A stretch of DNA of 64,000 nucleotides. Origin: Candidatus Saccharimonadales bacterium. GTDB taxonomy: Bacteria > Patescibacteriota > Saccharimonadia > Saccharimonadales > UBA10212. A program made the translations under genes and the position numbers. Where the stretch lies: contig JBBDZU010000002.1 in assembly GCA_040900055.1 (NCBI GenBank), positions 127,725-191,724 on the forward strand. The letters run 5' to 3'. Below, in pieces: positions 7,468 to 58,105 of this stretch (positions within the stretch are counted from its first letter, which is position 1; every line of letters begins with the position of its first letter). Below the pieces are notes generated by a model. The model was not told where the DNA came from. It ran no database searches and worked only from the letters and a program-made list of their open reading frames with translations.

Positions 7468-7902
7468 ATGGCTAAAGTTCAGCTGTCTGACGAGGAACTG
7501 AAAAAGAAACTTACGCCTGAACAATACCGCATTCTTCGGCAAAAAGGCACGGAAGCGCCTTTCTCCGGTAAGTACCTAGACCACAAAGAAAAGGGCATGT
7601 ATACCTGCGCAGCCTGTGGCGTCCGACTTTTTAGCAGTGACACCAAATTTGACTCCGGTACCGGCTGGCCAAGCTTTTATGACGTTACGTCAAGTGACGC
7701 CGTTAAATTAGCAGAAGATAGCAGCCATGGTATGAACCGCGTAGAAGTTACCTGCGCCAACTGCGGCAGTCACTTAGGGCATGTTTTTAACGATGGACTT
7801 ACGACCCTGCCTGCCGGCAGGCAGGCTACCGGCCAGAGATTTTGCATTAACTCGGCTTGCCTCGGTTTTATGCCAGAAGGCAGCTCTAAGGCCAAAGGCT
7901 AG
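7468..7902 (+). CDS. msrB: peptide-methionine (R)-S-oxide reductase MsrB, with in-frame palindrome insertion
   Basis: 144 aa. Two CxxC pairs and GHVFNDG...RFCINS. An extra [10 protein letters not shown] sits where homologs have about 3 residues. Confidence 0.93.
7806..7825. repeat. GC palindrome family copy 2 (CCTGCCTGCCGGCAGGCAGG)
   Basis: Perfect 20-bp palindrome inside msrB. Confidence 0.95.
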
Positions 7903-10988: not shown

Positions 10989-12743
10989 ATGGATGCGGTT
11001 AGTGAGGTAAAAAGCCGGCTTAATATTGAGGATGTTGTTGGCCAATATGTCCAACTAAAAAGATCCGGCCGTAACTTTAAGGGCTTAAGCCCCTGGACTA
11101 ACGAAAAAACGCCCAGCTTCATGGTTAGTCCCGAAAAACAAATATGGCACGACTTTAGCAGTGGCAAGGGCGGCGATATGTTTAGCTTTGTGATGGAAGT
11201 GGAAGGCCTGGATTTCAAGGCCGCCTTAGAAATGTTGGCCCGACAAGCCGGCGTAGACATGGACCAATATAAAAGCGCGTCGGCTAAAGTTAGCGGCCAG
11301 TTTAAAGCTAGGGCACAAAGCGCTCTGGAATTGGCCGCCAAGTTTTATCAAAAACAACTAACTGCCAACCAAACAGCCCTAAAGTATCTATTAAAAGACC
11401 GGGGCTTCAGCAAACAAACTTTAATTACTTGGCAGCTAGGCTATTCGCCAAATACGGGGCATGCCGTAAGCGATTTTTTAACCAAAAAAGGCTTTAGTGC
11501 AGATGAAATTAAACGAGCCGGCTTAAGTTTTATGCGCAGCGCCCAGCCCGCCGACATGTTCCGGGGCCGTATTATGATCCCGCTTTGTGACGAGAATTCC
11601 CAAGTTGTGGGCTTTACGGCTAGATTATTAGCCGACGAGCCGGACGCGCCCAAGTACATAAATACCCCTCAAACTGTTACCTACGACAAAGGTCGCCAGG
11701 TTTTTGGCCTGCATTTGGCAAAAGAGGCAATACGAAAAGAAGGCTGCGTGGTGGTGGCTGAAGGTAATTTAGATGTTATTGCCTCTCACCAGGCTGGTGT
11801 AGCTAATGTAGTAGCCAGTGCTGGTACGGCCATGACCGAAATGCACCTAAAGCAGCTTAAACGCTTTACTTCCGACATTCGCCTAAGCTTTGACGCCGAT
11901 AGTGCCGGTATAGCAGCTACCGAGAGGGTTATCCCCCTGGCCCAAAAAGCCGAAGTTAACTTGCGGATAATTGCTATCAAGGGCGCCAAGGACCCCGACG
12001 AGTTAATTAAAAAAGACGTAAAGCTTTGGAAGTCAGCTATTGATAGCGCGGTTTATGCCCCCGACTGGTTAATCGACCGCTATAAATCGGAGTTCGATTT
12101 AAAATCTGCCATGGGTAAGCGAGGCTTTACCGACGCTTTGCTTAACATTATTCGCCGGTTGCGCGACCCGGTAGAGCAAGAGCACTACTTGAAAATTATT
12201 GCCAAACTTACCGACACTACTTTGACGTCAGTCCAGGCTAAATTTGCGCCAACCGAAGCGAGCGAGGCCACTAGGCTTCGAAAAATTAAAATTGATCCAG
12301 CTCTGCCGGATCGGGCAGCTTTGGAATACCAAAGGCTTCAAGATCATTTTTTAGCCATGATGTTGTCTCAGCCAAAATTACGACCTTTACTTGCCGGCCT
12401 TCGAAAAGACTTTTTTAACGAGGGGCCACCTCGCCAATTATTCGAATTAATCAAAAAAGCCCCGCCCCAGCCTGAAAGTCCAAGCAAAGCAGCCGCCAAA
12501 TTAGACAACCTCGGTGATTATGTTAAAATTATCAAGTTACAGTTTGAGGAACTATACCAGGACTTGCCTTTCGGAGATTTAAAGGACCAAGCCACTCGCC
12601 TCAAAACACGTCTATTAGACGCTTACGTTAAAATTCAAAAACGCTCATTGGCCCAAACTATGAAGGTGGCCAAAAATGAAACCCACTTAAAAGAACTAAT
12701 CCATAAAGTTAATAAGTTAAACGAGTTGATATCTAAGCAGTAG
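10989..12743 (+). CDS. dnaG: DNA primase DnaG (zinc-ligand-less zinc-ribbon region)
   Basis: 584 aa. NEKTPSF motif and TOPRIM EGNLDV...DADSAG. The canonical C/H/C/C ligands are replaced by S/T/D/S. Confidence 0.93.
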   Translation: MDAVSEVKSRLNIEDVVGQYVQLKRSGRNFKGLSPWTNEKTPSFMVSPEKQIWHDFSSGKGGDMFSFVMEVEGLDFKAALEMLARQAGVDMDQYKSASAKVSGQFKARAQSALELAAKFYQKQLTANQTALKYLLKDRGFSKQTLITWQLGYSPNTGHAVSDFLTKKGFSADEIKRAGLSFMRSAQPADMFRGRIMIPLCDENSQVVGFTARLLADEPDAPKYINTPQTVTYDKGRQVFGLHLAKEAIRKEGCVVVAEGNLDVIASHQAGVANVVASAGTAMTEMHLKQLKRFTSDIRLSFDADSAGIAATERVIPLAQKAEVNLRIIAIKGAKDPDELIKKDVKLWKSAIDSAVYAPDWLIDRYKSEFDLKSAMGKRGFTDALLNIIRRLRDPVEQEHYLKIIAKLTDTTLTSVQAKFAPTEASEATRLRKIKIDPALPDRAALEYQRLQDHFLAMMLSQPKLRPLLAGLRKDFFNEGPPRQLFELIKKAPPQPESPSKAAAKLDNLGDYVKIIKLQFEELYQDLPFGDLKDQATRLKTRLLDAYVKIQKRSLAQTMKVAKNETHLKELIHKVNKLNELISKQ

Positions 12744-12752
12744 GAAGGTTAA

Positions 12753-13883
12753 ATGGCCAAAAAAGCGACTACAACCAAATCCCCCAGAAGAACTACTCGG
12801 TCGTTTGAAAAAGAAATTGCCTCCCTCGTTGAGCAGGGTAAAAAAGATGGCAAAATCGACCAAAAAGACATCTTTGCTGCTATCCCAGATACTCCGGCCA
12901 ACATCGATGTACTAGACCAGCTTTATGCCGAACTGGCCGAAGGCGAAGTCGAGATAATTGCAGCGGCGGAGCCGCCACCGGAGGGCCTAAGCGATGAGTG
13001 GGCTGTCGATGGCGAAGAGCTAATCACCGACGACAACGCCTATATGGACGATATTGCCGATGATTCGGTGCGACTTTACTTGCGCGAAATAGGTAAGATT
13101 CCACTTTTAACTGCCGAGGAAGAACTAGCCCTAGCCCGGAAAGTAAAATCCGGCGACAAACGCGCCAAAGATGCTATGGCCGAGGCCAATATGCGCCTAG
13201 TTGTTTCAATTGCCAAACGCTACGTGGGCCGCGGGCTAGATTTGCTGGACCTTATCCAAGAAGGTAACACCGGCCTGCTTCGTGCGGTCGAGAAATTTGA
13301 CCCGGACCGAGGTTTTAAATTTAGTACCTACGCCACTTGGTGGATTAGGCAGGCTATAACTCGGGCAATTGCCGACCAAGCCCGGACAATTCGTATTCCG
13401 GTTCACATGGTGGAAACAATCAATAAGCTGCTTAGGACCCAGCGGCGCCTAACTCAAGAACTCAACCGTGAGCCAACTAACGACGAAATTGCTGTAGCCA
13501 TGGAAATGGACGTTGATAAAGTAGAGCACATCATGAAAATTAAGCAGGACATTAGCTCACTTGATGCTAGCGTTCGCGACGACGAAGAAGATTCAGTCTT
13601 GGGTGATTTTATTGAGGATGAAGACGCTAAAACACCAACCGAATCGGCCTCCGAGCAGCTTCTTAAAGAACAAGTTAAACAAATTCTAGGTACTTTAACC
13701 GAGCGGGAACAAAAAATCTTAAAACTGCGCTTTGGCCTAGAAGACGGCAAAAGTCACACCCTAGAAGAAGTTGGTCAGGAATTTAGTGTTACCCGCGAAC
13801 GGATTCGCCAAATTGAAGCCAAAGCTTTAGCTAAATTACGTAAGCACAAAGAAACCCGCCGTCTGCACGAGTACCTGCAGTAA
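12753..13883 (+). CDS. rpoD: RNA polymerase sigma factor RpoD (primary sigma-70)
   Basis: 376 aa. Regions 1.2 to 4 are present ([30 protein letters not shown]). Confidence 0.95.
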
Positions 13884-13930
13884 AAACTACCATAGCCACC
13901 TTGCTGCCTGGCTTCTATACTCCATAAGTA

Positions 13931-15322
13931 ATGACAGAGTTGATTCTGCCAGGAAAACTAGACTCAGAATATGAGGGGGCCGAAAGGCCCTTTTTAGATT
14001 CAGAAGAGCTAGCATCCAATGAAGAACTAAGGCAGCTACTTGAAGCCGGCAAAAGCCCGGAGACTGTAGCAGTAGTCCTCAAAGAGCTAGGGATTGATGA
14101 TGACAAAATTGCCGAGGTTTATAGCTATCTGGAAGAGGAACAGCAGCCCACTGAAGTTAGAGCTGAAACCGAAGTAAAATATGACCCTCAAACTACAGAC
14201 TCGCTGAAAATTTATTTAAATGAAATAAAAAAACATCCTCTTCTGACCGCGTCCCAAGAAGTTGAGCTCGCCAAACGCATCGAGCGGGGCGACCCCGAAG
14301 CAAAACAAAAGATGATTGAATCTAACCTGCGATTGGTAGTTTCAATTGCTAATAAATACCCAGGGCATATGTCTTTACTTGATCGCATACAAGAGGGCAA
14401 CAAAGGGCTTATACGGGCAGTCGAGAAGTTTGATCACCGTAGAGGCTTTAAATTTAGTACTTATGCGACCTGGTGGATCCGTCAGGCTGTACAAAGAGGA
14501 ATAGCCGATAAAGCAAGGACTATTCGGTTCCCAGTACACATAACAGAACGCCAACAAAAGATAATTAATTCAAGGAGGCGTTTAACCGGGGAGCTTGGCC
14601 GAGAGCCTTCGGTTGAAGAAATAGCCGAAGATATAGGTATGTCGCTAAGAATGGTGACGGCAGTCCTAGAGGCGCCTGAGGCGTCGGTTTCACTGCAAAA
14701 GCCTGTGGGCGAAGAAGGTGAGGCCCAATTTGGTGATTTATTACCCGGGGACGGAGAGGAAGAAATCTTGGAGGCCGTGGAGCAGAAATTACTAGAGCAA
14801 ATAATCGCAGATCACCTAGGTAGTCTGCCGGAAAAATGGCGTGAAGTGATAGAACTCAGGTATGGTCTAAAGGATGGGGAAGAAAGAACTTTAGAAGATA
14901 TCGGGCGGGGGATGGGTTTAACAAAGGAACGAGTCCGGCAAATCGAAACTGAAGCGTTAAAACACTTGGCTAGCTCTGAGCTTAGGGAAAAGATCGAGCC
15001 AAAGGAGGCGGTAGAATTGAAAAAAAGGTTGACTAGTAAAAAAACTGCTATTTTATATCTTAGAGACGGAACAACAATCCAAATGCCCGAACTCTATTAC
15101 GAAATTCTAAGGCGATTATCTACAGGGATGTCTCACTTAAAGGCTGCGCAGGATCTTGGTATGCCACATAGTACTGTTAAAGCACTTGGCCCTAATGGCG
15201 GCAAGGGGTACTACGCTAAGCTTGGTGTTCAGAACGTGGCTGAAGCTAGACAAAAATTTCAACAAGAATTTGTACGGGTCGAATTTAAAGAGGTGGAAGA
15301 AACCGACCAAAAAGAAGCATGA
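13931..15322 (+). CDS. second group-1/2-like sigma-70 factor fused to a C-terminal LuxR/GerE-type HTH
   Basis: 463 aa. Complete regions 1.2-4 ([30 protein letters not shown]). A further ~110 aa contains [27 protein letters not shown]...[12 protein letters not shown]. Confidence 0.85.
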
Positions 15323-21897: not shown

Positions 21898-21941
21898 AGC
21901 TACAATCGACAGGCTTTAGCCACTCTGCCATACTTTAGCCT

Positions 21942-22817
21942 ATGCCGGAGTTACCAGAGGTAGAGACAATTCGAATTGGTCTGTCCAAACTTTTGCCCAG
22001 GAAAGTTATTGCCGACGTTTGGCACGATTGGCATAAATCTTTTCCCAATGCCCCCTCTGATGTAGCCCGTTTTATGATAAACGCCGAAGTTACCAGTGTT
22101 CGTAGACGTGCTAAGGTATTAATAATTGAATTTTCAAGCGATTATTCACTAGTAATTCACCTTAAAATGACCGGGCAAATGGTATTTGACGGCAAAAAAC
22201 GCTTTGGAGCAGGCCATCCAACTAAAAGCTTACTGGCCAAATTGCCAGACAAAAGTACGCGGGTGATTATTGATTTTACAGATGGCTCTAAACTTTTTTT
22301 CAATGATCAGCGGAAGTTTGGTTGGATGCGCTTAATTCCGACCATCCAAGTTCCAGAAATTGATTTTTTTATGAAGGTAGGGCCAGAACCGCTAGATGAT
22401 GATTTTACTATTGATAGGTTTATCGAACGTTTAATGACCCGCCCAAACAGTAATATTAAAGCGGTTTTACTTGATCAATCAGTGCTGGCGGGTGTTGGCA
22501 ACATCTACGCTGACGAGGCCCTGCATGTCGCCAAAATACACCCGGCTACTTTGGTATCAGCTATCCCCAAAATGAAGCTGGTAACCCTATATAATGGCTT
22601 GCGCGATGTTTTGAATATGAGCATAAAACAAGGGGGTAGTACCGATAGGAATTTTGTTGATGTCAAAGGGCAAGCCGGCAGTTATTTAGCATTTGCGCAG
22701 GTATTTAGAAAGCAGGGGCAGCCGTGCCCCCGCTGTGGCAGTGATATAGTTAAAATTCGGGTGGCCGGTAGAGGGACGCATCTTTGTCCGAACTGCCAGA
22801 AGGCACCAAGGAAGTGA
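21942..22817 (+). CDS. mutM: formamidopyrimidine-DNA glycosylase
   Basis: 291 aa. MPELPEVE N-terminus, H2TH region and C-terminal CPRCG...CPNCQ zinc finger. Confidence 0.93.
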   Translation: MPELPEVETIRIGLSKLLPRKVIADVWHDWHKSFPNAPSDVARFMINAEVTSVRRRAKVLIIEFSSDYSLVIHLKMTGQMVFDGKKRFGAGHPTKSLLAKLPDKSTRVIIDFTDGSKLFFNDQRKFGWMRLIPTIQVPEIDFFMKVGPEPLDDDFTIDRFIERLMTRPNSNIKAVLLDQSVLAGVGNIYADEALHVAKIHPATLVSAIPKMKLVTLYNGLRDVLNMSIKQGGSTDRNFVDVKGQAGSYLAFAQVFRKQGQPCPRCGSDIVKIRVAGRGTHLCPNCQKAPRK

Positions 22818-25693: not shown

Positions 25694-25708
25694 CTATACT
25701 TATCGCTA

Positions 25709-26458
25709 GTGGATGGCATTTTACTGCTTGATAAACCAGTCGGCTGGACTTCTCACGACGTAGTTGCCATGGTGCGCAAAACACTGCGCACAGCTCTTAG
25801 CGATAAGCAGTTAGCCGTTAGCCAAAAGCAAAGTGCCAACAGCCAGCAGCTAACAGCTCCTTCAGCTAAGCTGAAGGTAGGCCACACCGGTACGTTGGAT
25901 CCGATGGCCAGCGGCTTATTGGTGTTAGTTTTAGGTAGTTATACTAAGCGTGCTAGTGAGTTTTCCAAATTAGATAAAACTTATGAGGCTGAGCTAACTT
26001 TGGGAGCGGTCAGTACCACTGGCGACTCTGAAGGGGAAATCCGCCCTAAGTCAGGCCGTGAGCCGACACTGGCAGACATCACGAGAGCCCTCTCTGAATT
26101 AACGGGGCAGATTCAACAAACGCCGCATATCTATAGCGCGGTTAAAGTTGGCGGGCAAAGGTCGTATAAACTGGCGCGACAAGGCAAAGCAGTAAAGCTG
26201 GAGCCGCGCAAGGTTAAAGTGCATAGCTTAGCCGTTACAGGCTATAGGTATCCAAAACTCCAGATTTTAACAGAGGTAAGCAGTGGCACTTACATTCGTT
26301 CCTTGGCCGAAGATATTGGGCAAAAAGTAGGCTCCGGTGCCTACTTAACAGCCCTCCGACGCACGAAAATCGGTAATTTTGACGTTAATGATAGCTTATT
26401 TACAGAGAAGATAAACCAGAAAGATATAGAAAAAGCTATTGCTTTAACTATAGTTTAG
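25709..26458 (+). CDS. truB: tRNA pseudouridine(55) synthase
   Basis: 249 aa. GILLLDKP and GHTGTLDPMASG motifs. GTG start. Carries an insertion of about 25 aa before the GHTG motif. Confidence 0.9.
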   Translation: MDGILLLDKPVGWTSHDVVAMVRKTLRTALSDKQLAVSQKQSANSQQLTAPSAKLKVGHTGTLDPMASGLLVLVLGSYTKRASEFSKLDKTYEAELTLGAVSTTGDSEGEIRPKSGREPTLADITRALSELTGQIQQTPHIYSAVKVGGQRSYKLARQGKAVKLEPRKVKVHSLAVTGYRYPKLQILTEVSSGTYIRSLAEDIGQKVGSGAYLTALRRTKIGNFDVNDSLFTEKINQKDIEKAIALTIV

Positions 26459-30079: not shown

Positions 30080-30298
30080 ATGGCTAGGCGGATTTTAAGA
30101 AAGTCCCAAGAACAAAAACTAATGCACAGATGGTGGGTAGCTGGCTTGCTCGCCTTGGTTTTTTTAGCGGTAGCTTATGGTTTTATTAGCCTAGCGCTCG
30201 ATTCTGGCAGTTGGCTAGAATACGCCACCGGCTTATTCTTTTTTGGCTGGGCCATTAATCGGGCAGTAAATTCATTTCGTTATGCTTTTGACAGGTAG
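30080..30298 (+). CDS. small two-TM membrane protein, hypothetical
   Basis: 72 aa with two hydrophobic segments. No family recognised. Confidence 0.4.
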   Translation: MARRILRKSQEQKLMHRWWVAGLLALVFLAVAYGFISLALDSGSWLEYATGLFFFGWAINRAVNSFRYAFDR

Positions 30299-30302
30299 TT
30301 AA

Positions 30303-31100
30303 GTGAAACAAGCTTTGACAAAACAAGCCAAGCTAGACCAAATTAGAGCCGACATTTTGGACCTAAATATCTGCGAAGGCTTAAGGCAAAACGCCACACA
30401 GCTAGTTTTTGGCGATGGCAGTGCTGATAGCGAGATTGTTTTTATTGGCGAGGCGCCTGGCAAAAGTGAAGATGAGCAAGGATTGCCTTTTGTGGGCGCG
30501 GCCGGCAAATTTTTAAACGAGATGCTGGCCAGTATTGGCCTTGAGCGCTCGGAGGTTTATATCACCAATATTGTTAAATACCGGCCGCCGGCTAACCGGG
30601 ACCCACTACCAGAAGAAAAGGCAGCCTTTTTGCCATATCTTCGCCAACAGATAATGGTCATACAGCCCAAGCTAATTGTTACTTTAGGCAGACACAGCCT
30701 AGAAACACTAATTCCTGGACTGCGAATTAGCGAATGTCATGGCCGGCCAAAACGAGTGAAGATCCCAGTAGGTCGCCAAGGTGCGAGTACGATGCAAGGC
30801 GCAGGCGAGCAGAGGACTGAGCTGTACAAAAATGTTACTGCGAAGGAGCAGACGCAGCCTGCAACGCCGCAGCGTGCCGCGAATGATGGCGGAGTCGGCG
30901 GCTCTGCCGACGAGCAGGCCATCATGTCCTTGGTGATCCTACCGCTGTTTCATCCGGCGGCAGCCCTATACAACGGCTCCATGCGCCAAACCTTAATTAA
31001 CGATTTTGCCAAAATCCCTAAAGTACTTGAGCAAATAAACAACCCAAAACCAGCTATATCTAAAAGCAAGGAGTCCAAATATGTCGCCAGCAACAGGTAA
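30303..31100 (+). CDS. uracil-DNA glycosylase, family 4, interrupted in frame by a GC-rich insert
   Basis: GEAPG motif A and HPAAAL motif B. About 55 extra residues lie between HGRPKRV and VILPLFHPAAAL. GTG start. Confidence 0.85.
   Translation: MKQALTKQAKLDQIRADILDLNICEGLRQNATQLVFGDGSADSEIVFIGEAPGKSEDEQGLPFVGAAGKFLNEMLASIGLERSEVYITNIVKYRPPANRDPLPEEKAAFLPYLRQQIMVIQPKLIVTLGRHSLETLIPGLRISECHGRPKRVKIPVGRQGASTMQGAGEQRTELYKNVTAKEQTQPATPQRAANDGGVGGSADEQAIMSLVILPLFHPAAALYNGSMRQTLINDFAKIPKVLEQINNPKPAISKSKESKYVASNR
30761..30943. mobile_element. MITE-like GC-rich in-frame insert with imperfect terminal inverted repeats
   Basis: The left end AGTAGGTCGCCAAGG matches the reverse complement of the right end, GGTAGGATCACCAAGG. 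GATCC occurs at both ends. GC is clearly above the flanks. Confidence 0.5.
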
Positions 31101-33099
31101 AAATAATCCCGGCAACCGGAAAATATCTCGTGGAGCGGCCATTAGGGCTCAAAAACGTTCGGTGGCCGATGCCAACCGCAAAGCCAGCCAATATCTAGAC
31201 GCTTCGGCTAAAAAGCCCGCCGACCCAGGCAAGGCCCCGATCCGCAGAGTCAACCTAATTGACGATAGCCCTCGTCTGAAAATTATCGGCTTGGGGGGCA
31301 TGGACGGTGGTGGCTCTAAAAACATATTGGTTATTGAGTATCAAAATGATGCCCTAGTCTTAGACTGCGGCAATGACTTGGGTGTTGATTTACCCGGCAT
31401 TAACTATGGCATAGCCGACACCACATATCTTGATCAGATTAAGCCAAAGCTTAAAGGTTTTGTTATTACCCATGGTCACTTAGACCACATGGGGGCTTTG
31501 CCGCATATTTTGCCAAAATATAATGTGCCAGTTTATGGTAGTCGTTTTACCATTGGCCGGGTTGAAGAAATTTTTGAAAATTTTGGCCTGCCAATGCCAG
31601 CCGGCTTTGAGCTTAAGACTATCATTATGAACGAGGACAATCACGAACGACTCAAAGTCGGCTCCTTTTTTGTTGAGCTTATCCGGGTGACCCACTCCAT
31701 ACCCGGCAGTAATGCCATTGTGGTTGACACACCTGCAGGTCGCGTAATTAACACTGGTGATTTTAGGCTAGACCCTAACCCGCTAGACCACGAACGTACC
31801 GACATGGCCAGGTTTGAAGAGCTAGCTCGTCAAGGCGTATTGGTTTTGATGAGCGAATCTACTACAGCCGAGCGACCGGGCCGCACCCCCTCCGAGAGCA
31901 CTATCGAGCAAAGCTTCGTAGACATTATGGAAAAAGCCCCAGGTAGGATTTTTATCGCTATTTTCTCGACTAACGTTAACCGTATTCAAATGATTGTGAA
32001 TGCCGCTGTTAAGCATAATCGCAAAATTGCGCTAGACGGCCGCAGTATGGTTAGCACTTTGGAAATGGCTGTGCGTAACGGTTTTATGAAGATTCCCAAG
32101 GGCACTTTTGTGCCCATCGCTTCGGTTCCTAATCTTAAAGACGATCAAGTTGTAGTGGTTTGTACTGGTGGGCAAGGCGAACCTAATTCGGCGCTAGTTA
32201 GAATGAGCATGGGCGACCACGCTGTCATTAGCCTAAAAGAGCAAGATAGCGTGGTTTTATCTTCAACACCTATCCCAGAGACTGGCAACGATGCTCTTAT
32301 TGGCGACATGGTTGATGATTTGATGCGGAAGGGCGTGCACGTTTACCGGCACGAAACCTATGAGCTAGACGGCTGTGGGCCACTGCATGTATCCGGTCAC
32401 GCCTCCATCGAGGAATACCGCGACATGATTAACTTGATAAAACCCAAGTTCTTTATCCCGGTATATGGCAATTATCGATCTAAGAAACGCCACATAACCA
32501 TTGCTGTTGAAGAAGGCATCCCCCGGGGCAACTGTGTTAACGCTGAAAACGGCGATATTATAGCCATTACTCCAAATAAAATCGAAGTTACTGGTCAGGT
32601 ACCGCACGGCACTGTCTTAGTAGATCAAACCGGCGCAATTGTTAGCAGCGTGGTGGTTAAAGACAGAGTTTTGTTGGCCGAAGAGGGACTAGTAGCGGTT
32701 GTTTTAACAATCGATAAAAAAAGTGGCACTTTGCTTACCAGCCCCGATATTATCAGCCGCGGCTTTATCTACATGAAGGATAACGAGGAGTTGATGAATG
32801 CCTTCCGGGAAGAACTGCGCCGGGCAGTCACCCAGCGCTTTAAACGGGTTGATTTGGATCGATTTAAAGCCGAACTTAAAGATTATGTTACTCATTTTTT
32901 GTTCGAACAAACTCAGCGAAGCCCAATCGTTATCCCAGTAGTCAATGTTATTGGTGGGCGGTCGGAAAAACAGTCTAAACCACTGCAAAATGGACAAACC
33001 GAAGGTCAAAAAAGTCCCCAGGAGCTTGCCTTAGAACAACAAAGACGCTTTGCCCAAATGCGCCAGCAGCTACTTAACCAAGACGCCCGCACTGACTAA
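31081..33099 (+). CDS. rnj: ribonuclease J
   Basis: 672 aa. HGHLDHMG metallo-beta-lactamase motif and beta-CASP layout. Basic N-terminal extension. Confidence 0.9.
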   Translation: MSPATGKNNPGNRKISRGAAIRAQKRSVADANRKASQYLDASAKKPADPGKAPIRRVNLIDDSPRLKIIGLGGMDGGGSKNILVIEYQNDALVLDCGNDLGVDLPGINYGIADTTYLDQIKPKLKGFVITHGHLDHMGALPHILPKYNVPVYGSRFTIGRVEEIFENFGLPMPAGFELKTIIMNEDNHERLKVGSFFVELIRVTHSIPGSNAIVVDTPAGRVINTGDFRLDPNPLDHERTDMARFEELARQGVLVLMSESTTAERPGRTPSESTIEQSFVDIMEKAPGRIFIAIFSTNVNRIQMIVNAAVKHNRKIALDGRSMVSTLEMAVRNGFMKIPKGTFVPIASVPNLKDDQVVVVCTGGQGEPNSALVRMSMGDHAVISLKEQDSVVLSSTPIPETGNDALIGDMVDDLMRKGVHVYRHETYELDGCGPLHVSGHASIEEYRDMINLIKPKFFIPVYGNYRSKKRHITIAVEEGIPRGNCVNAENGDIIAITPNKIEVTGQVPHGTVLVDQTGAIVSSVVVKDRVLLAEEGLVAVVLTIDKKSGTLLTSPDIISRGFIYMKDNEELMNAFREELRRAVTQRFKRVDLDRFKAELKDYVTHFLFEQTQRSPIVIPVVNVIGGRSEKQSKPLQNGQTEGQKSPQELALEQQRRFAQMRQQLLNQDARTD

Positions 33100-50086: not shown

Positions 50087-50587
50087 ATGAAATACCGGCT
50101 TAACAAACAAAAAGAACCAAGAGTCCCCAAAAACTTGGGCGGTTTTACAATTATCGAGGTTGTTATTGTGCTGGCTATCGCTGGTCTAATTATGGCCATA
50201 GTTTTTATAGCCGTACCTCAACTTAACCGCAACGCTCGAGATAATGCCCGGCAAAACGTTGCCAATCGTTTGCACTCAGAACTTGGGACCTACGCTGCCA
50301 ATAATAGCGGAACCTATCCATTTACCACTTCGGCGCTAGCTGATTTCTCTAGCCGCTATGCCTCGACCATTAAGATGACTAATCCATCAACTGGCAGTAC
50401 GTACTCGCTAGACTTCGCTAGCAGTGATGGAGCAAATCCCAGTGCCGATCAAATCCTTATTCATCGCGGCGCTAGGTGTACCGGCGAACAAGCCTCTGGC
50501 ACCAGCTCCTCAGCCACTACCAGATCTTATGCGCTGCGGGTAGCGCTGGATAGATCAAACATTTTCTACTGCATCGACAACGGATAG
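50087..50587 (+). CDS. pilA: type IV major pilin
   Basis: 166 aa. Leader ...KNLGG|FTIIEVVIVLAIAGL with G at -1, F at +1 and E at +5. Confidence 0.85.
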   Translation: MKYRLNKQKEPRVPKNLGGFTIIEVVIVLAIAGLIMAIVFIAVPQLNRNARDNARQNVANRLHSELGTYAANNSGTYPFTTSALADFSSRYASTIKMTNPSTGSTYSLDFASSDGANPSADQILIHRGARCTGEQASGTSSSATTRSYALRVALDRSNIFYCIDNG

Positions 50588-50661
50588 ACCTACTTTGGAC
50601 AGCCAAAGTAGCAAAACCGCCGGGCGCGTCGCCAAGCTTGAGTAGCGGTTGTTTAAAACAG

Positions 50662-50681
50662 CCTGCCTGCCGGCAGGCAGG
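50662..50681. repeat. GC palindrome family copy 3
   Basis: Perfect CCTGCCTGCCGGCAGGCAGG. Confidence 0.95.
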
Positions 50682-50906
50682 GCTCGCTGTGGATCTCACC
50701 CTCACCATTTTCACTGGAAATGGTGAGGGGCTCAAACAGTCCTCGCGACCAAGTACGCCTCTTTAATAAACAACAGACTACTCAGGTTAACTCCTTATGC
50801 CCGGACCCATAAATTGGGCATGTAGGCGAGCCTGAGCTAAGCACGTCAAAAGCATCAACTTAATAATGCCGAGGACTGTCCGATCCGCCAGCTGGCGGAG
50901 AGGGCC

Positions 50907-50928
50907 GCCTGCCTGCCGGCAGGCAGGC
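50907..50928. repeat. GC palindrome family copy 4 (22 bp)
   Basis: GCCTGCCTGCCGGCAGGCAGGC. A CCGCCAGCTGGCGG palindrome lies adjacent at 50885-50898. Confidence 0.95.
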
Positions 50929-51066
50929 TTGTCGTCCCGCAGGCTTGTTTGTGCGCTTTGACAGGGGTTGGCGTCAGCCGAGCCTACGCCCAGAGCTTTT
51001 TTTGCTACTTTTGTCGGCACAAAAGTAGCGAATACTTTGCTTCTTTAGAAAGAAGCAGTTAGCATT

Positions 51067-51876
51067 ATGGTAATGCTTGTTACGGCTATTGCCTTAGCTA
51101 TTTTAGGCTTATGCTTGGGGAGCTTTGTAAACGCCCTGGTTTGGCGCATACATGTCAATAAAAATTGGGTGAAGGCTAGAAGCCAGTGCCCAACCTGCGG
51201 CCATATTCTATCGGCACGCGATCTAATTCCGGTTATATCTTGGTTATCATTACGCGGTCGTTGCCGTTACTGCGGCAATAAAATCTCTTGGCAGTATCCT
51301 ATTTCCGAACTTGGCCTATCAGCTGTTTTTATGACTTCTTATTATTTTTGGCCTGGCGGGTTAACTAGCACCGGTCCTAAAATTTTATTCATTAGCTGGC
51401 TTATTTCGGCTGTAGGTCTTTTGGCCTTATTTATTTATGACCTTCGTTGGATGTTGCTGCCCAGTAAAATCCTGGCTGCTACAGCTTTGGTGGCCATAAC
51501 CGGACGGCTGATTTACTTAATCGGCTTTGAACCGTCAAAAACTGAAGGCCTTGCCAATTGGCTACTTAGCATCACAGTAGCCAGTGGTCTATTTGGGTTA
51601 TTTTATATAATTTCACGCGGTCGCTGGATAGGCGACGGGGACATTAGCCTTGGTCTAATTACCGGCACCTTGCTGGCCGATCCATTGCGAAGTTTTTTAA
51701 TGATTTTTTTGGCGTCGCTAATTGGCACTTTAGTGGTGTTGCCGGCCATTATCAGCGGTCGGCGGGCGCTTGGTACTAGGGTGGCCTATGGCCCGTTTTT
51801 GATTTTAGCGGCATTTATTGTCCTTTTGTTTGGCGATCCATTTATCGATTGGTATAAGGCGCTGATTTTAGTTTAG
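51067..51876 (+). CDS. pilD: prepilin peptidase / N-methyltransferase
   Basis: 269 aa. CPTCGH...CRYCG zinc motif. Multi-TM protein with GDGD-type aspartate motifs. Confidence 0.9.
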   Translation: MVMLVTAIALAILGLCLGSFVNALVWRIHVNKNWVKARSQCPTCGHILSARDLIPVISWLSLRGRCRYCGNKISWQYPISELGLSAVFMTSYYFWPGGLTSTGPKILFISWLISAVGLLALFIYDLRWMLLPSKILAATALVAITGRLIYLIGFEPSKTEGLANWLLSITVASGLFGLFYIISRGRWIGDGDISLGLITGTLLADPLRSFLMIFLASLIGTLVVLPAIISGRRALGTRVAYGPFLILAAFIVLLFGDPFIDWYKALILV

Positions 51877-58067: not shown

Positions 58068-58105
58068 CCCGATGGGCGTCCGCCAGCTGGCGGACGCCCA
58101 TCGGG
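58068..58105. repeat. perfect 38-bp palindrome
   Basis: CCCGATGGGCGTCCGCCAGCTGGCGGACGCCCATCGGG. Its core CCGCCAGCTGGCGG also occurs at 50885-50898. Confidence 0.95.

Follow-up and report, generated by a model that had tools for sequence, protein, structure and literature searches.

The stretch of DNA analysed here (the window) comprises 64,000 nt of contig JBBDZU010000002.1 from a Candidatus Saccharimonadales bacterium (positions 127,725–191,724) and contains a gene for a family-4 uracil-DNA glycosylase (UDG) that carries a GC-rich insert. This insert is very probably a full-length copy of an old, dispersed family of GC-rich repeats of ~170 nt in the Saccharimonadales, and the explanation that we favor as a whole is the following. 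The sense strand of each copy would form a closed Y made up of a closing helix and two hairpin arms. Copies within genes would lie in the sense orientation and nearly always in one frame, in exposed loops of unrelated housekeeping proteins. The UDG copy would sit at the turn of the β-hairpin before motif B and would be transcribed and translated with the gene, adding ~57 residues as a longer hairpin and a disordered loop rich in Q, A, G, S, T and E that leaves the catalytic motifs untouched. The copies may have arisen by transposition of a nonautonomous element recognized through its folded single strand, with the fold retained for what it does as RNA, be it a structure acting in cis in the mRNA or a site to which some factor binds; a rival view of this last step is that the fold was simply inherited from the source copies. 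With equal confidence, and as part of the same explanation, we hold that what selection retains is the reading frame along with pairing within the sense strand, not the peptide sequence.

Covariance model R1, which was derived from copies in relatives, matches the window copy over all of its positions (1–169 of 169) with a score of 160.9 bits (E = 5e-41), and nhmmer gives an E value of 5.5e-38. The copy encodes UDG residues 157–213 in the usual reading frame of the family. An earlier interpretation of the window made from the letters alone (the sequence-only reading) had described a GC-rich segment inserted in frame into the UDG, and this description was borne out: the GC content of 30761–30943, the bounds given there, is 0.612 compared with 0.473 for the whole window (100-nt windows peak at 0.62–0.65), the frame is preserved and the match to TIGR00758 is split by the insert. 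Those bounds differ by no more than ~10 nt from the ones defined by the model. Searches of the 64-kb window by blastn, by nhmmer and with the covariance model with filters off revealed no second copy, only a remnant in the TruB gene. The segment was also considered as the target of a diversity-generating retroelement, which was rejected as the window holds no template copy by blastn.

That the insert is a repeated element is supported by further copies, which were found between genes and in 13 or more gene families besides UDG. When metagenome contigs were scanned for a peptide pattern based solely on the insert, 30 loci were recovered, five in UDG and 25 outside it, and at the latter the same 45–50 residues lie in frame within unrelated proteins. 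The hosts identified by Pfam are MsrA, RecG, KhpB (KH and R3H domains), exonuclease I (SbcB), UvrC, TruB, TsaE, Dus, MgsA/RarA, UvrD, Fpg, a HAD hydrolase and a class I aminoacyl-tRNA synthetase (two copies), which with UDG makes 14 host protein families. A search of 1.7 Mb of Saccharibacteria DNA with nhmmer and then with R1 gave 53 matches, many of them beyond the reach of the peptide scan; complete matches are mostly 165–173 nt in length and include intergenic copies in both orientations. The copies align over ~170 nt at the nucleotide level with a mean column identity of 66–70%.

The consensus structure obtained by RNAalifold from 40 copies is a closed Y of 56 pairs, 49 of which show compensatory double changes. 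It consists of an 11-bp closing helix (helix 1), a long irregular hairpin (Arm A) and a second hairpin with an apical GGC-UCN-GCC (Arm B). Across the copies, 92.3% of cells are paired, 579 cells are changed on both sides and the covariation score is 0.685, compared with 29–45%, at most 126 and 0.08–0.14, respectively, when partners are slid by 1–3 columns, and none of 500 shuffles reached the observed pairing or covariation values. All 11 pairs of helix 1 covary and the helix contains no conserved column; the conserved sequence is internal, most of it in Arm A (ATGCAAGGCGCAGGCGAGCAG...GCGAAGGAGCAG...GCAACGC). The stem of Arm B (helices 7–9) is highly variable in sequence among copies, with complementarity always kept: it is 94–96% paired and 13 of its 15 pairs are changed on both sides. 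The window copy itself forms 53 of the 56 consensus pairs. Its two ends, which the sequence-only reading had described as imperfect terminal inverted repeats (TIRs), do pair with each other (Table 1), and in the single-sequence fold the stem is lengthened outwards to GUAGG/CCUAC with one bulge; they are not conserved TIRs of the transposase type, being instead the closing helix of a three-helix fold. An indel in the stem is the reason why a repeat finder missed them. The 3′ arm of helix 1 overlaps conserved host codons for V-I.

G·U pairs outnumber A·C mismatches among the copies by 151 to 33, and the folding strand is therefore the sense strand, which in genic copies is that of the mRNA. Intergenic copies show this bias too, including those that are antisense to both neighbors. 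The minimum free energy (MFE) of the window copy is −83.2 kcal/mol for the sense strand (z = −3.99, with none of 200 shuffles as good) and −73.7 kcal/mol for the antisense strand (z = −1.98). The base-pairing is conserved in place at individual sites. Nine UDG-resident copies for which DNA is available, aligned by MAFFT alone, give the same 56-pair fold with 35 compensatory pairs and are 94% paired at a mean identity of 68%; for copies in the intergenic DNA 3′ of the RNase J gene (rnj), an alignment fitted to the model shows ~94% pairing although their identity is only ~47%.

The protein sequences carry the imprint of this pairing. In 90 UDG homologs, the residue that the 5′ arm encodes at its inner end behaves as a reverse-complement codon partner of the one immediately preceding V-I-L-P: Q-L in 32, P-W in 24, S-W in eight, Y-V and D-I in three each, N-V and E-L in two each, and N-I, D-V, K-F and H-V in one each, so that the arm residues are compatible with pairing in 78 of the 90. 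Different copies read the conserved motif GCGAAGGAG in one of two frames (TAKEQ versus GEGA), and other variants of the UDG insert look like the same nucleotides in another frame (PYK versus TRTS), which suggests that it is the nucleic acid that is conserved and not the peptide. These observations bear on the possibility that the segment is a lineage-specific protein loop or domain kept for a role of its peptide in UDG. It is in frame and free of stops, and is found in many UDG orthologs with a recognizable consensus peptide (roughly GADAMQGAGEQRTEPYxxYGEGAxQPATQQRAASxSGVxGSAGxQAxTxW). However, 13 other protein families and stop-bearing intergenic copies contain the same nucleotides, compensated frameshifts among copies alter the peptide and spare the nucleotides, and the covariation of residues tracks codon complementarity; moreover, the peptide is predicted to be disordered and Pfam has no domain for it. 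Of the explanations weighed here, this is the one that we find hardest to credit.

The reading frame was examined by comparing copies within identified host genes with the remaining copies. Genic copies contain no stop in the family frame, the sole exception being the diverged Fpg copy of L028, which is read in another frame, and their model-aligned span is 169 or 172 nt (±1), from which it follows that indels are compensated in threes. Nearly all intergenic copies, which are 165–171 nt long, have 1–5 stops in the family frame. Since the frame is open only in genic copies, it is not intrinsic to the element but is maintained in genes, and a frame kept open only inside genes in turn implies that ribosomes read through the element. 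This is also the evidence on which to judge an intervening sequence removed after transcription or translation, such as a small intron, a bulge–helix–bulge intron, a bypass element or a mini-intein. The closing helix draws the two flanks together, and Patescibacteria are rich in introns (PMC13011429); but there would be no need for an open frame in genic copies only were the element removed, its boundaries show no nucleotide conservation and, for an intein, the 57-residue insert is far below the size of a Hint domain (at least ~130 residues), with no Hint domain found by Pfam. A search of Rfam 15 (introns, ribozymes, sRNAs and riboswitches) at E values of up to 10 returned three chance-level matches (E = 0.19–9.1), far below the gathering scores. 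We regard an intervening sequence as very improbable and have rejected intein, intron and bypass element on size, open frame and lack of conserved boundaries.

Table 1. Positions of the element, its parts and its host gene in the window, and of the copies 3′ of rnj in other loci
Feature	Position	Strand	Basis
Repeat element, full-length copy, 172 nt, GC 0.62	30771–30942	+	covariance model R1; nhmmer
Helix 1, 5′ arm (GGTCGCCAAGG), left 'TIR' of the sequence-only reading, codes for G-R-Q-G	30771–30781	+	consensus structure; mapping; MFE fold
Helix 1, 3′ arm (CCTTGGTGATC), right 'TIR' of the sequence-only reading, codes for S-L-V-I	30928–30938	+	consensus structure; mapping; MFE fold
Arm A, long irregular hairpin with internal loops	30782–30881	+	RNAalifold; pair counts; mapping
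Arm A, apical stem	30821–30827/30835–30841	+	column-to-position mapping
Arm A, apical loop	30828–30834	+	column-to-position mapping
Arm B, hairpin with internal loop, apical GGC-UCU-GCC in the window copy	30883–30925	+	repeat search; pair counts; mapping
Internal direct repeat, left (GCAGGCGAGCAG)	30801–30812	+	repeat search; L116/L117 deletion junctions
Internal direct repeat, right (GCCGACGAGCAG)	30906–30917	+	repeat search; L116/L117 deletion junctions
Host gene, family-4 UDG, 265 residues	30303–31100	+	open reading frame list; Pfam; TIGR00758; PDB
Copy 3′ of rnj	L003:12672–12839	−	
Copy 3′ of rnj	L014:12768–12934	−	
Copy 3′ of rnj	L053:12702–12873	−	
Copy 3′ of rnj	L022:7627–7793	−	

The host protein is a family-4 UDG according to Pfam PF03167 (E = 1.2e-33, 116.6 bits compared with a cutoff of 24.3) and TIGR00758 (179.8 bits compared with a cutoff of 125.3), the latter match being broken into two stretches by the insert. 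Its best relatives in the PDB are the family-4 UDGs 4zbx, 1l9g, 1vk2 and 1ui0; the closest, 4zbx, also aligns in two pieces, one on each side of the insert. An identical protein from a Candidatus Saccharimonadales metagenome-assembled genome (MAG) is present at NCBI. Motif A (Gly49-Glu-Ala-Pro-Gly53; GEAPG) and motif B (His217-Pro-Ala-Ala-Ala-Leu222; HPAAAL) are intact and invariant among 111 homologs, and neither is interrupted by the element, the end of which lies three codons before Pro214. Cys24 is nearly invariant in the same homologs and is the sole cysteine so listed; enzymes of family 4 bind a 4Fe–4S cluster through four cysteines. The extra length relative to the usual short linker, as claimed in the sequence-only reading, is evident from the spacing between HG and the HP of motif B, which is 73 residues in the window UDG compared with 22 in most of 80 Saccharibacteria species representatives, where the common form is HGQPKRIxFGDxKxVIxPLFHP.

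An AlphaFold2 model of the window UDG calculated with 111 homologs has a mean pLDDT (predicted local distance difference test score) of 82.6, with 179 residues above 90. Residues 159–200 are below 50 and are flanked by lengthened strands (residues 150–156 and 206–215). The element is thus predicted to form the tip of the β-hairpin preceding motif B as a disordered loop, and the suggestion that the enzyme may tolerate the insert as a loop is consistent with this model, in which residues 159–200 lie between β-strands. The insertion in Fpg is likewise at a hairpin turn, with ~57 extra residues in L109 and L001.

Empty sites and graded stages of loss are found among relatives. Empty-site UDG alleles, the existence of which the sequence-only reading had left to be checked, make up the majority of the 80 species representatives. 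UDG lineages L116 and L117 have independently lost 105 nt between the internal direct repeats (Table 1), and lineage L114 retains little beyond the closing helix; insertion followed by in-frame deletion therefore accounts for the graded loop lengths among UDG homologs. The site in Fpg is filled by the element in L109, L001 and L028. In the window, a Fpg-like open reading frame (ORF; 21939–22814) has an empty site at 22254–22320, with the uninterrupted turn VIIDF-TDGS-KLFF. The TruB site of the window (ORF 25694–26455) is longer by ~60 nt at ~25800–25870, a decayed remnant matching the 3′ half of the element; L087 and L106 have an intact copy at this site, whereas L007, L002 and L042 have none. 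Just 3′ of the remnant there is a small hairpin, CCTTCAGCTAAGCTGAAGG, which shows covariation with L001 (CCTTCGGCGAAGCCGAAGG).

The insert is neither recent nor private: of the 120 best UDG homologs (54–73% identical, all from Saccharibacteria), 93 have a homologous segment of at least 50 residues at the same site. The highest identity between copies at different sites is ~80%, and the family is therefore old, with no sign in this figure of a recent burst of copies. Copies at the same site tend to group in the tree (TruB, Fpg and part of UDG), for TruB and Fpg by site rather than by genome, and the window copy is closest to the UDG copy of L001 (81% identity). Vertical descent at each site fits the grouping and the L001 match better than constant overwriting by other copies. 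The 169- and 172-nt size classes were considered as clean subfamilies and rejected, as TruB copies of both classes group together.

A further alternative is a classical recent MITE (miniature inverted-repeat transposable element), i.e. a short nonautonomous DNA transposon with conserved TIRs and a target-site duplication that is moved by the transposase of an insertion sequence (IS). Such an element would have inverted repeats at its ends, would be dispersed in genes and intergenic DNA and would leave empty sites, all of which are seen here. Nevertheless, we consider it unlikely: the sequence of the terminal helix differs among copies and is merely complementary, with 11 of 11 pairs covarying and the conserved part internal, the UDG copy is common to 93 of 120 homologs at 54–73% identity, between-site identity reaches only ~80% and a partner IS was not seen. 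Neither the filled and empty Fpg sites nor the UDG junctions show a target-site duplication, although at ~70% protein identity these are too diverged to exclude a short one. No split or expanded copies of the element were seen in the 1.7 Mb of Saccharibacteria DNA.

Several points weigh against the explanation that we favor, an old, dispersed element folded on its sense strand and maintained in frame. Because metagenomes were scanned with a peptide pattern, and in a single frame, the apparent preference for the sense orientation and for frame 0 is inflated, and the copies recovered free of this bias are few. Some of the same-site statistics come from alignment A5, which had been fitted to the model. 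That genic copies are translated and tolerated by their host proteins is inferred from sequence alone. Current mobility of the element is not demonstrated, the most similar copies at different sites being ~80% identical, and neither a mobilizing enzyme nor a target-site duplication nor a conserved terminal sequence was found.

One reading extends the favored explanation rather than excluding it, and we regard it as possible although on the whole not probable: the element may be a domesticated functional RNA module, a cis-acting fold (a binding site for a protein or an RNase, or an mRNA-stability element) that was spread by transposition, is selected by the host and is double-coded where it lies in ORFs. 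It would account for the preservation of the fold by compensatory changes in same-site copies across species (94% paired at 68% identity in UDG and 94% at 47% in rnj), for the conservation of unpaired nucleotides such as UGCAAGG, GAAGGAG and AACGC, for the strand specificity of the G·U bias and for the grouping of TruB and Fpg copies by site and not by genome, which also argues against simple homogenization by gene conversion. Less easily reconciled with a selected module are the lack of an Rfam match, the well folded copies that are antisense to both neighboring genes with no evident transcript, the single intact copy in the 64 kb of the window genome, the TruB copy left to decay and the internal deletions tolerated in several UDG lineages. 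More tentatively still, the family may be a new class of structured RNA that works inside coding sequence, a double-coded module that is both a protein loop and an RNA fold. It would have spread by transposition into mRNAs for repair, tRNA modification and other housekeeping functions and into untranslated regions, in Saccharibacteria, and would be kept by host selection as a shared handle for post-transcriptional control or processing, or else as a substrate of structure-recognizing mobility machinery.

Among known systems, Rickettsia palindromic elements (RPEs) are ~150-bp repeats that code for a conserved peptide and occur in frame in unrelated genes unusually often, compatibly with the fold of the host protein (PMC10969869, summarizing Ogata et al., 2000). 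They are the closest known analogue, and we file the present element as one of the same kind but not as a member. As far as RPEs are described in that summary, both are short dispersed repeats (~150 nt in the case of RPEs) with a closed, hairpin-like fold, both lie in intergenic DNA and in frame inside unrelated housekeeping ORFs, to which they add a conserved peptide, and both inhabit the small genomes of host-dependent bacteria and are mobilized by unknown means. The Saccharimonadales element has the dispersed, closed-fold character of an RPE (53 matches, with a Y closed by a terminal helix) and its in-frame insertion with one orientation and frame (14 host families, the frame preference being partly inflated by the peptide scan). 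The two differ in that RPEs belong to the Alphaproteobacteria and the present element to the Patescibacteria (Saccharimonadales), in the fold (a three-helix Y with conserved internal loops compared with a simple palindrome) and in the strong, strand-specific covariation of the present element, which persists among same-site copies across species. To our knowledge, such covariation has not been shown for RPEs, and we know of no sequence relation between the two, which are likened by kind only.

Bacterial MITEs that fuse in frame with host ORFs include ERIC, pneumococcal BOX, Coxiella QMITE1 and Anabaena MITEs (PMC10969869; PMC5896051). Like the present element they are nonautonomous, structured, dispersed and occasionally translated in host proteins, but they have conserved TIRs and usually target-site duplications, and many are tied to an IS family, whereas the terminal helix of the present element is variable, TIRs are not conserved between its copies, no duplication was seen and no parent IS is known. 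Repetitive extragenic palindromic sequences (REPs) and their bacterial interspersed mosaic elements (BIMEs), as well as IS200/IS605-type elements associated with palindromes, require a folded single strand and not a particular terminal sequence. They show strand specificity and often lie immediately downstream of genes. They resemble the present element in fold dependence and strand specificity, which is a lead from general knowledge and not a tested relation. REPs are 20–40 nt in length and extragenic; the present element is far longer and also genic, and no RAYT, TnpA or TnpB partner or conserved target tetranucleotide was found for it. The mitochondrial 'byp' GC clusters of Magnusiomyces and the hop of T4 gene 60 are GC-rich structured mobile inserts that are tolerated in coding sequence. 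They are skipped by ribosomes and need not be open, whereas the frame of the present element is kept open, which implies read-through translation. A search of the literature on palindromic, in-frame or MITE repeats in Saccharibacteria and Patescibacteria found no description of the element, which is not proof that none exists; as far as Rfam and the literature searched go, the family is apparently undescribed, an RPE-like kind with added features.

In-frame 'selfish' palindromes have so far been discussed mostly for Rickettsia, where their entry into genes without breakage and any role have been left open. A second, independent family in a very different phylum, with hundreds of metagenomic variants, makes these questions testable by comparison. 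It offers a case of a one-strand nucleic acid fold kept by selection within translated sequence while the peptide drifts and even changes frame, and it accounts in part for the puzzling differences in length among Saccharibacteria proteins, in which loops are lengthened when the element inserts and shortened again by internal deletions. The covariance model is ready for a census of Patescibacteria genomes.

A phmmer search of a whole library with the 54-residue peptide gave four weak matches, the query being too short for 1.8 billion proteins, and the 180 candidates from a peptide-profile search of a 5.8-billion protein set, which is of no use as a census of hosts, include 18 short hypothetical ORFs called on intergenic copies. 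The latter (P0125–P0142, 53–83 residues) are public 'hypothetical proteins', for example from Candidatus Saccharimonadales MAGs, and are likely to be spurious genes, which is a warning for annotation. Three exact matches to an 18-base core pattern in viral contigs were rejected as copies of the element; the contigs are those of high-GC phages.

Seven of the 14 host families function in DNA repair or recombination (UDG, Fpg, UvrC, UvrD, RecG, SbcB and MgsA) and four act on tRNA (TruB, Dus, TsaE and an aminoacyl-tRNA synthetase). The repair families may be hosts because insertions are tolerated in dispensable genes, not because of any function, and the counts may show no more than which genes accept an insert. 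One host gene contains two different kinds of in-frame insert: UvrD/PcrA of L103 (8997–12395) has a copy of the element near its N-terminus and an intein (Pfam Intein_splicing, residues 331–671). Genes beside intergenic copies are ordinary housekeeping genes with no recurring transposase. A copy in L108 (12094–12263) lies 34 nt past the 3′ end of a gene for a large serine recombinase (12297–14021, minus strand; Resolvase and Recombinase domains), which is probably a coincidence, as it is a single case with no recurrent association. In four species antisense copies lie at the extreme 3′ end of rnj (Table 1); the RNase J gene of the window, which ends at 33099, has no copy after it. In L011, two copies (14383–14547, minus strand, and 14615–14784, plus strand) lie tail to tail, 67 nt apart, in a single intergenic region flanked by genes for an FtsJ-like methyltransferase and a phosphoribosyltransferase.

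A 72-residue ORF (30080–30298) lies between the genes for polynucleotide phosphorylase and UDG. It has no Pfam hit on record and is present at the same position, with 72–74 residues, in the contigs of P0078, P0045 and P0079.

The window also contains short palindromes. A perfect palindrome of 16–22 bp with the core CCTGCCTGCCGGCAGGCAGG occurs four times, at 377–396, 7806–7825, 50662–50681 and 50907–50928. The first is in the last codons of ORF 112–402 and the second is inside ORF 7468–7902, both of which read LPAGRQ, and the other two are in the intergenic gap 50587–51067. The sequence-only reading had linked the PVGRQG encoded at the start of the UDG insert to the PAGRQG/PAGRQA of this palindrome, a link that we discard: the palindrome core is found in none of 110 other Saccharibacteria loci, although the element is present in 40 of these. 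In this lineage PVGRQG is simply what the 5′ arm of helix 1 encodes (GGTCGCCAAGG with upstream bases), and other UDG copies have GGPG, VGRPG or VGGQ at this position. The likeness is best taken as a coincidence between two GC-rich sequences, and the CCTGCCTGCCGGCAGGCAGG palindrome is a separate, lineage-restricted repeat. The UDG homolog P0120 has SLPAGRQGS just upstream of its own copy of the element. A second type of palindrome, at 58075–58098 and 50884–50899 (GGCGTCCGCCAGCTGGCGGACGCC and TCCGCCAGCTGGCGGA), has the common core CCGCCAGCTGGCGG and may represent another short repeat family.

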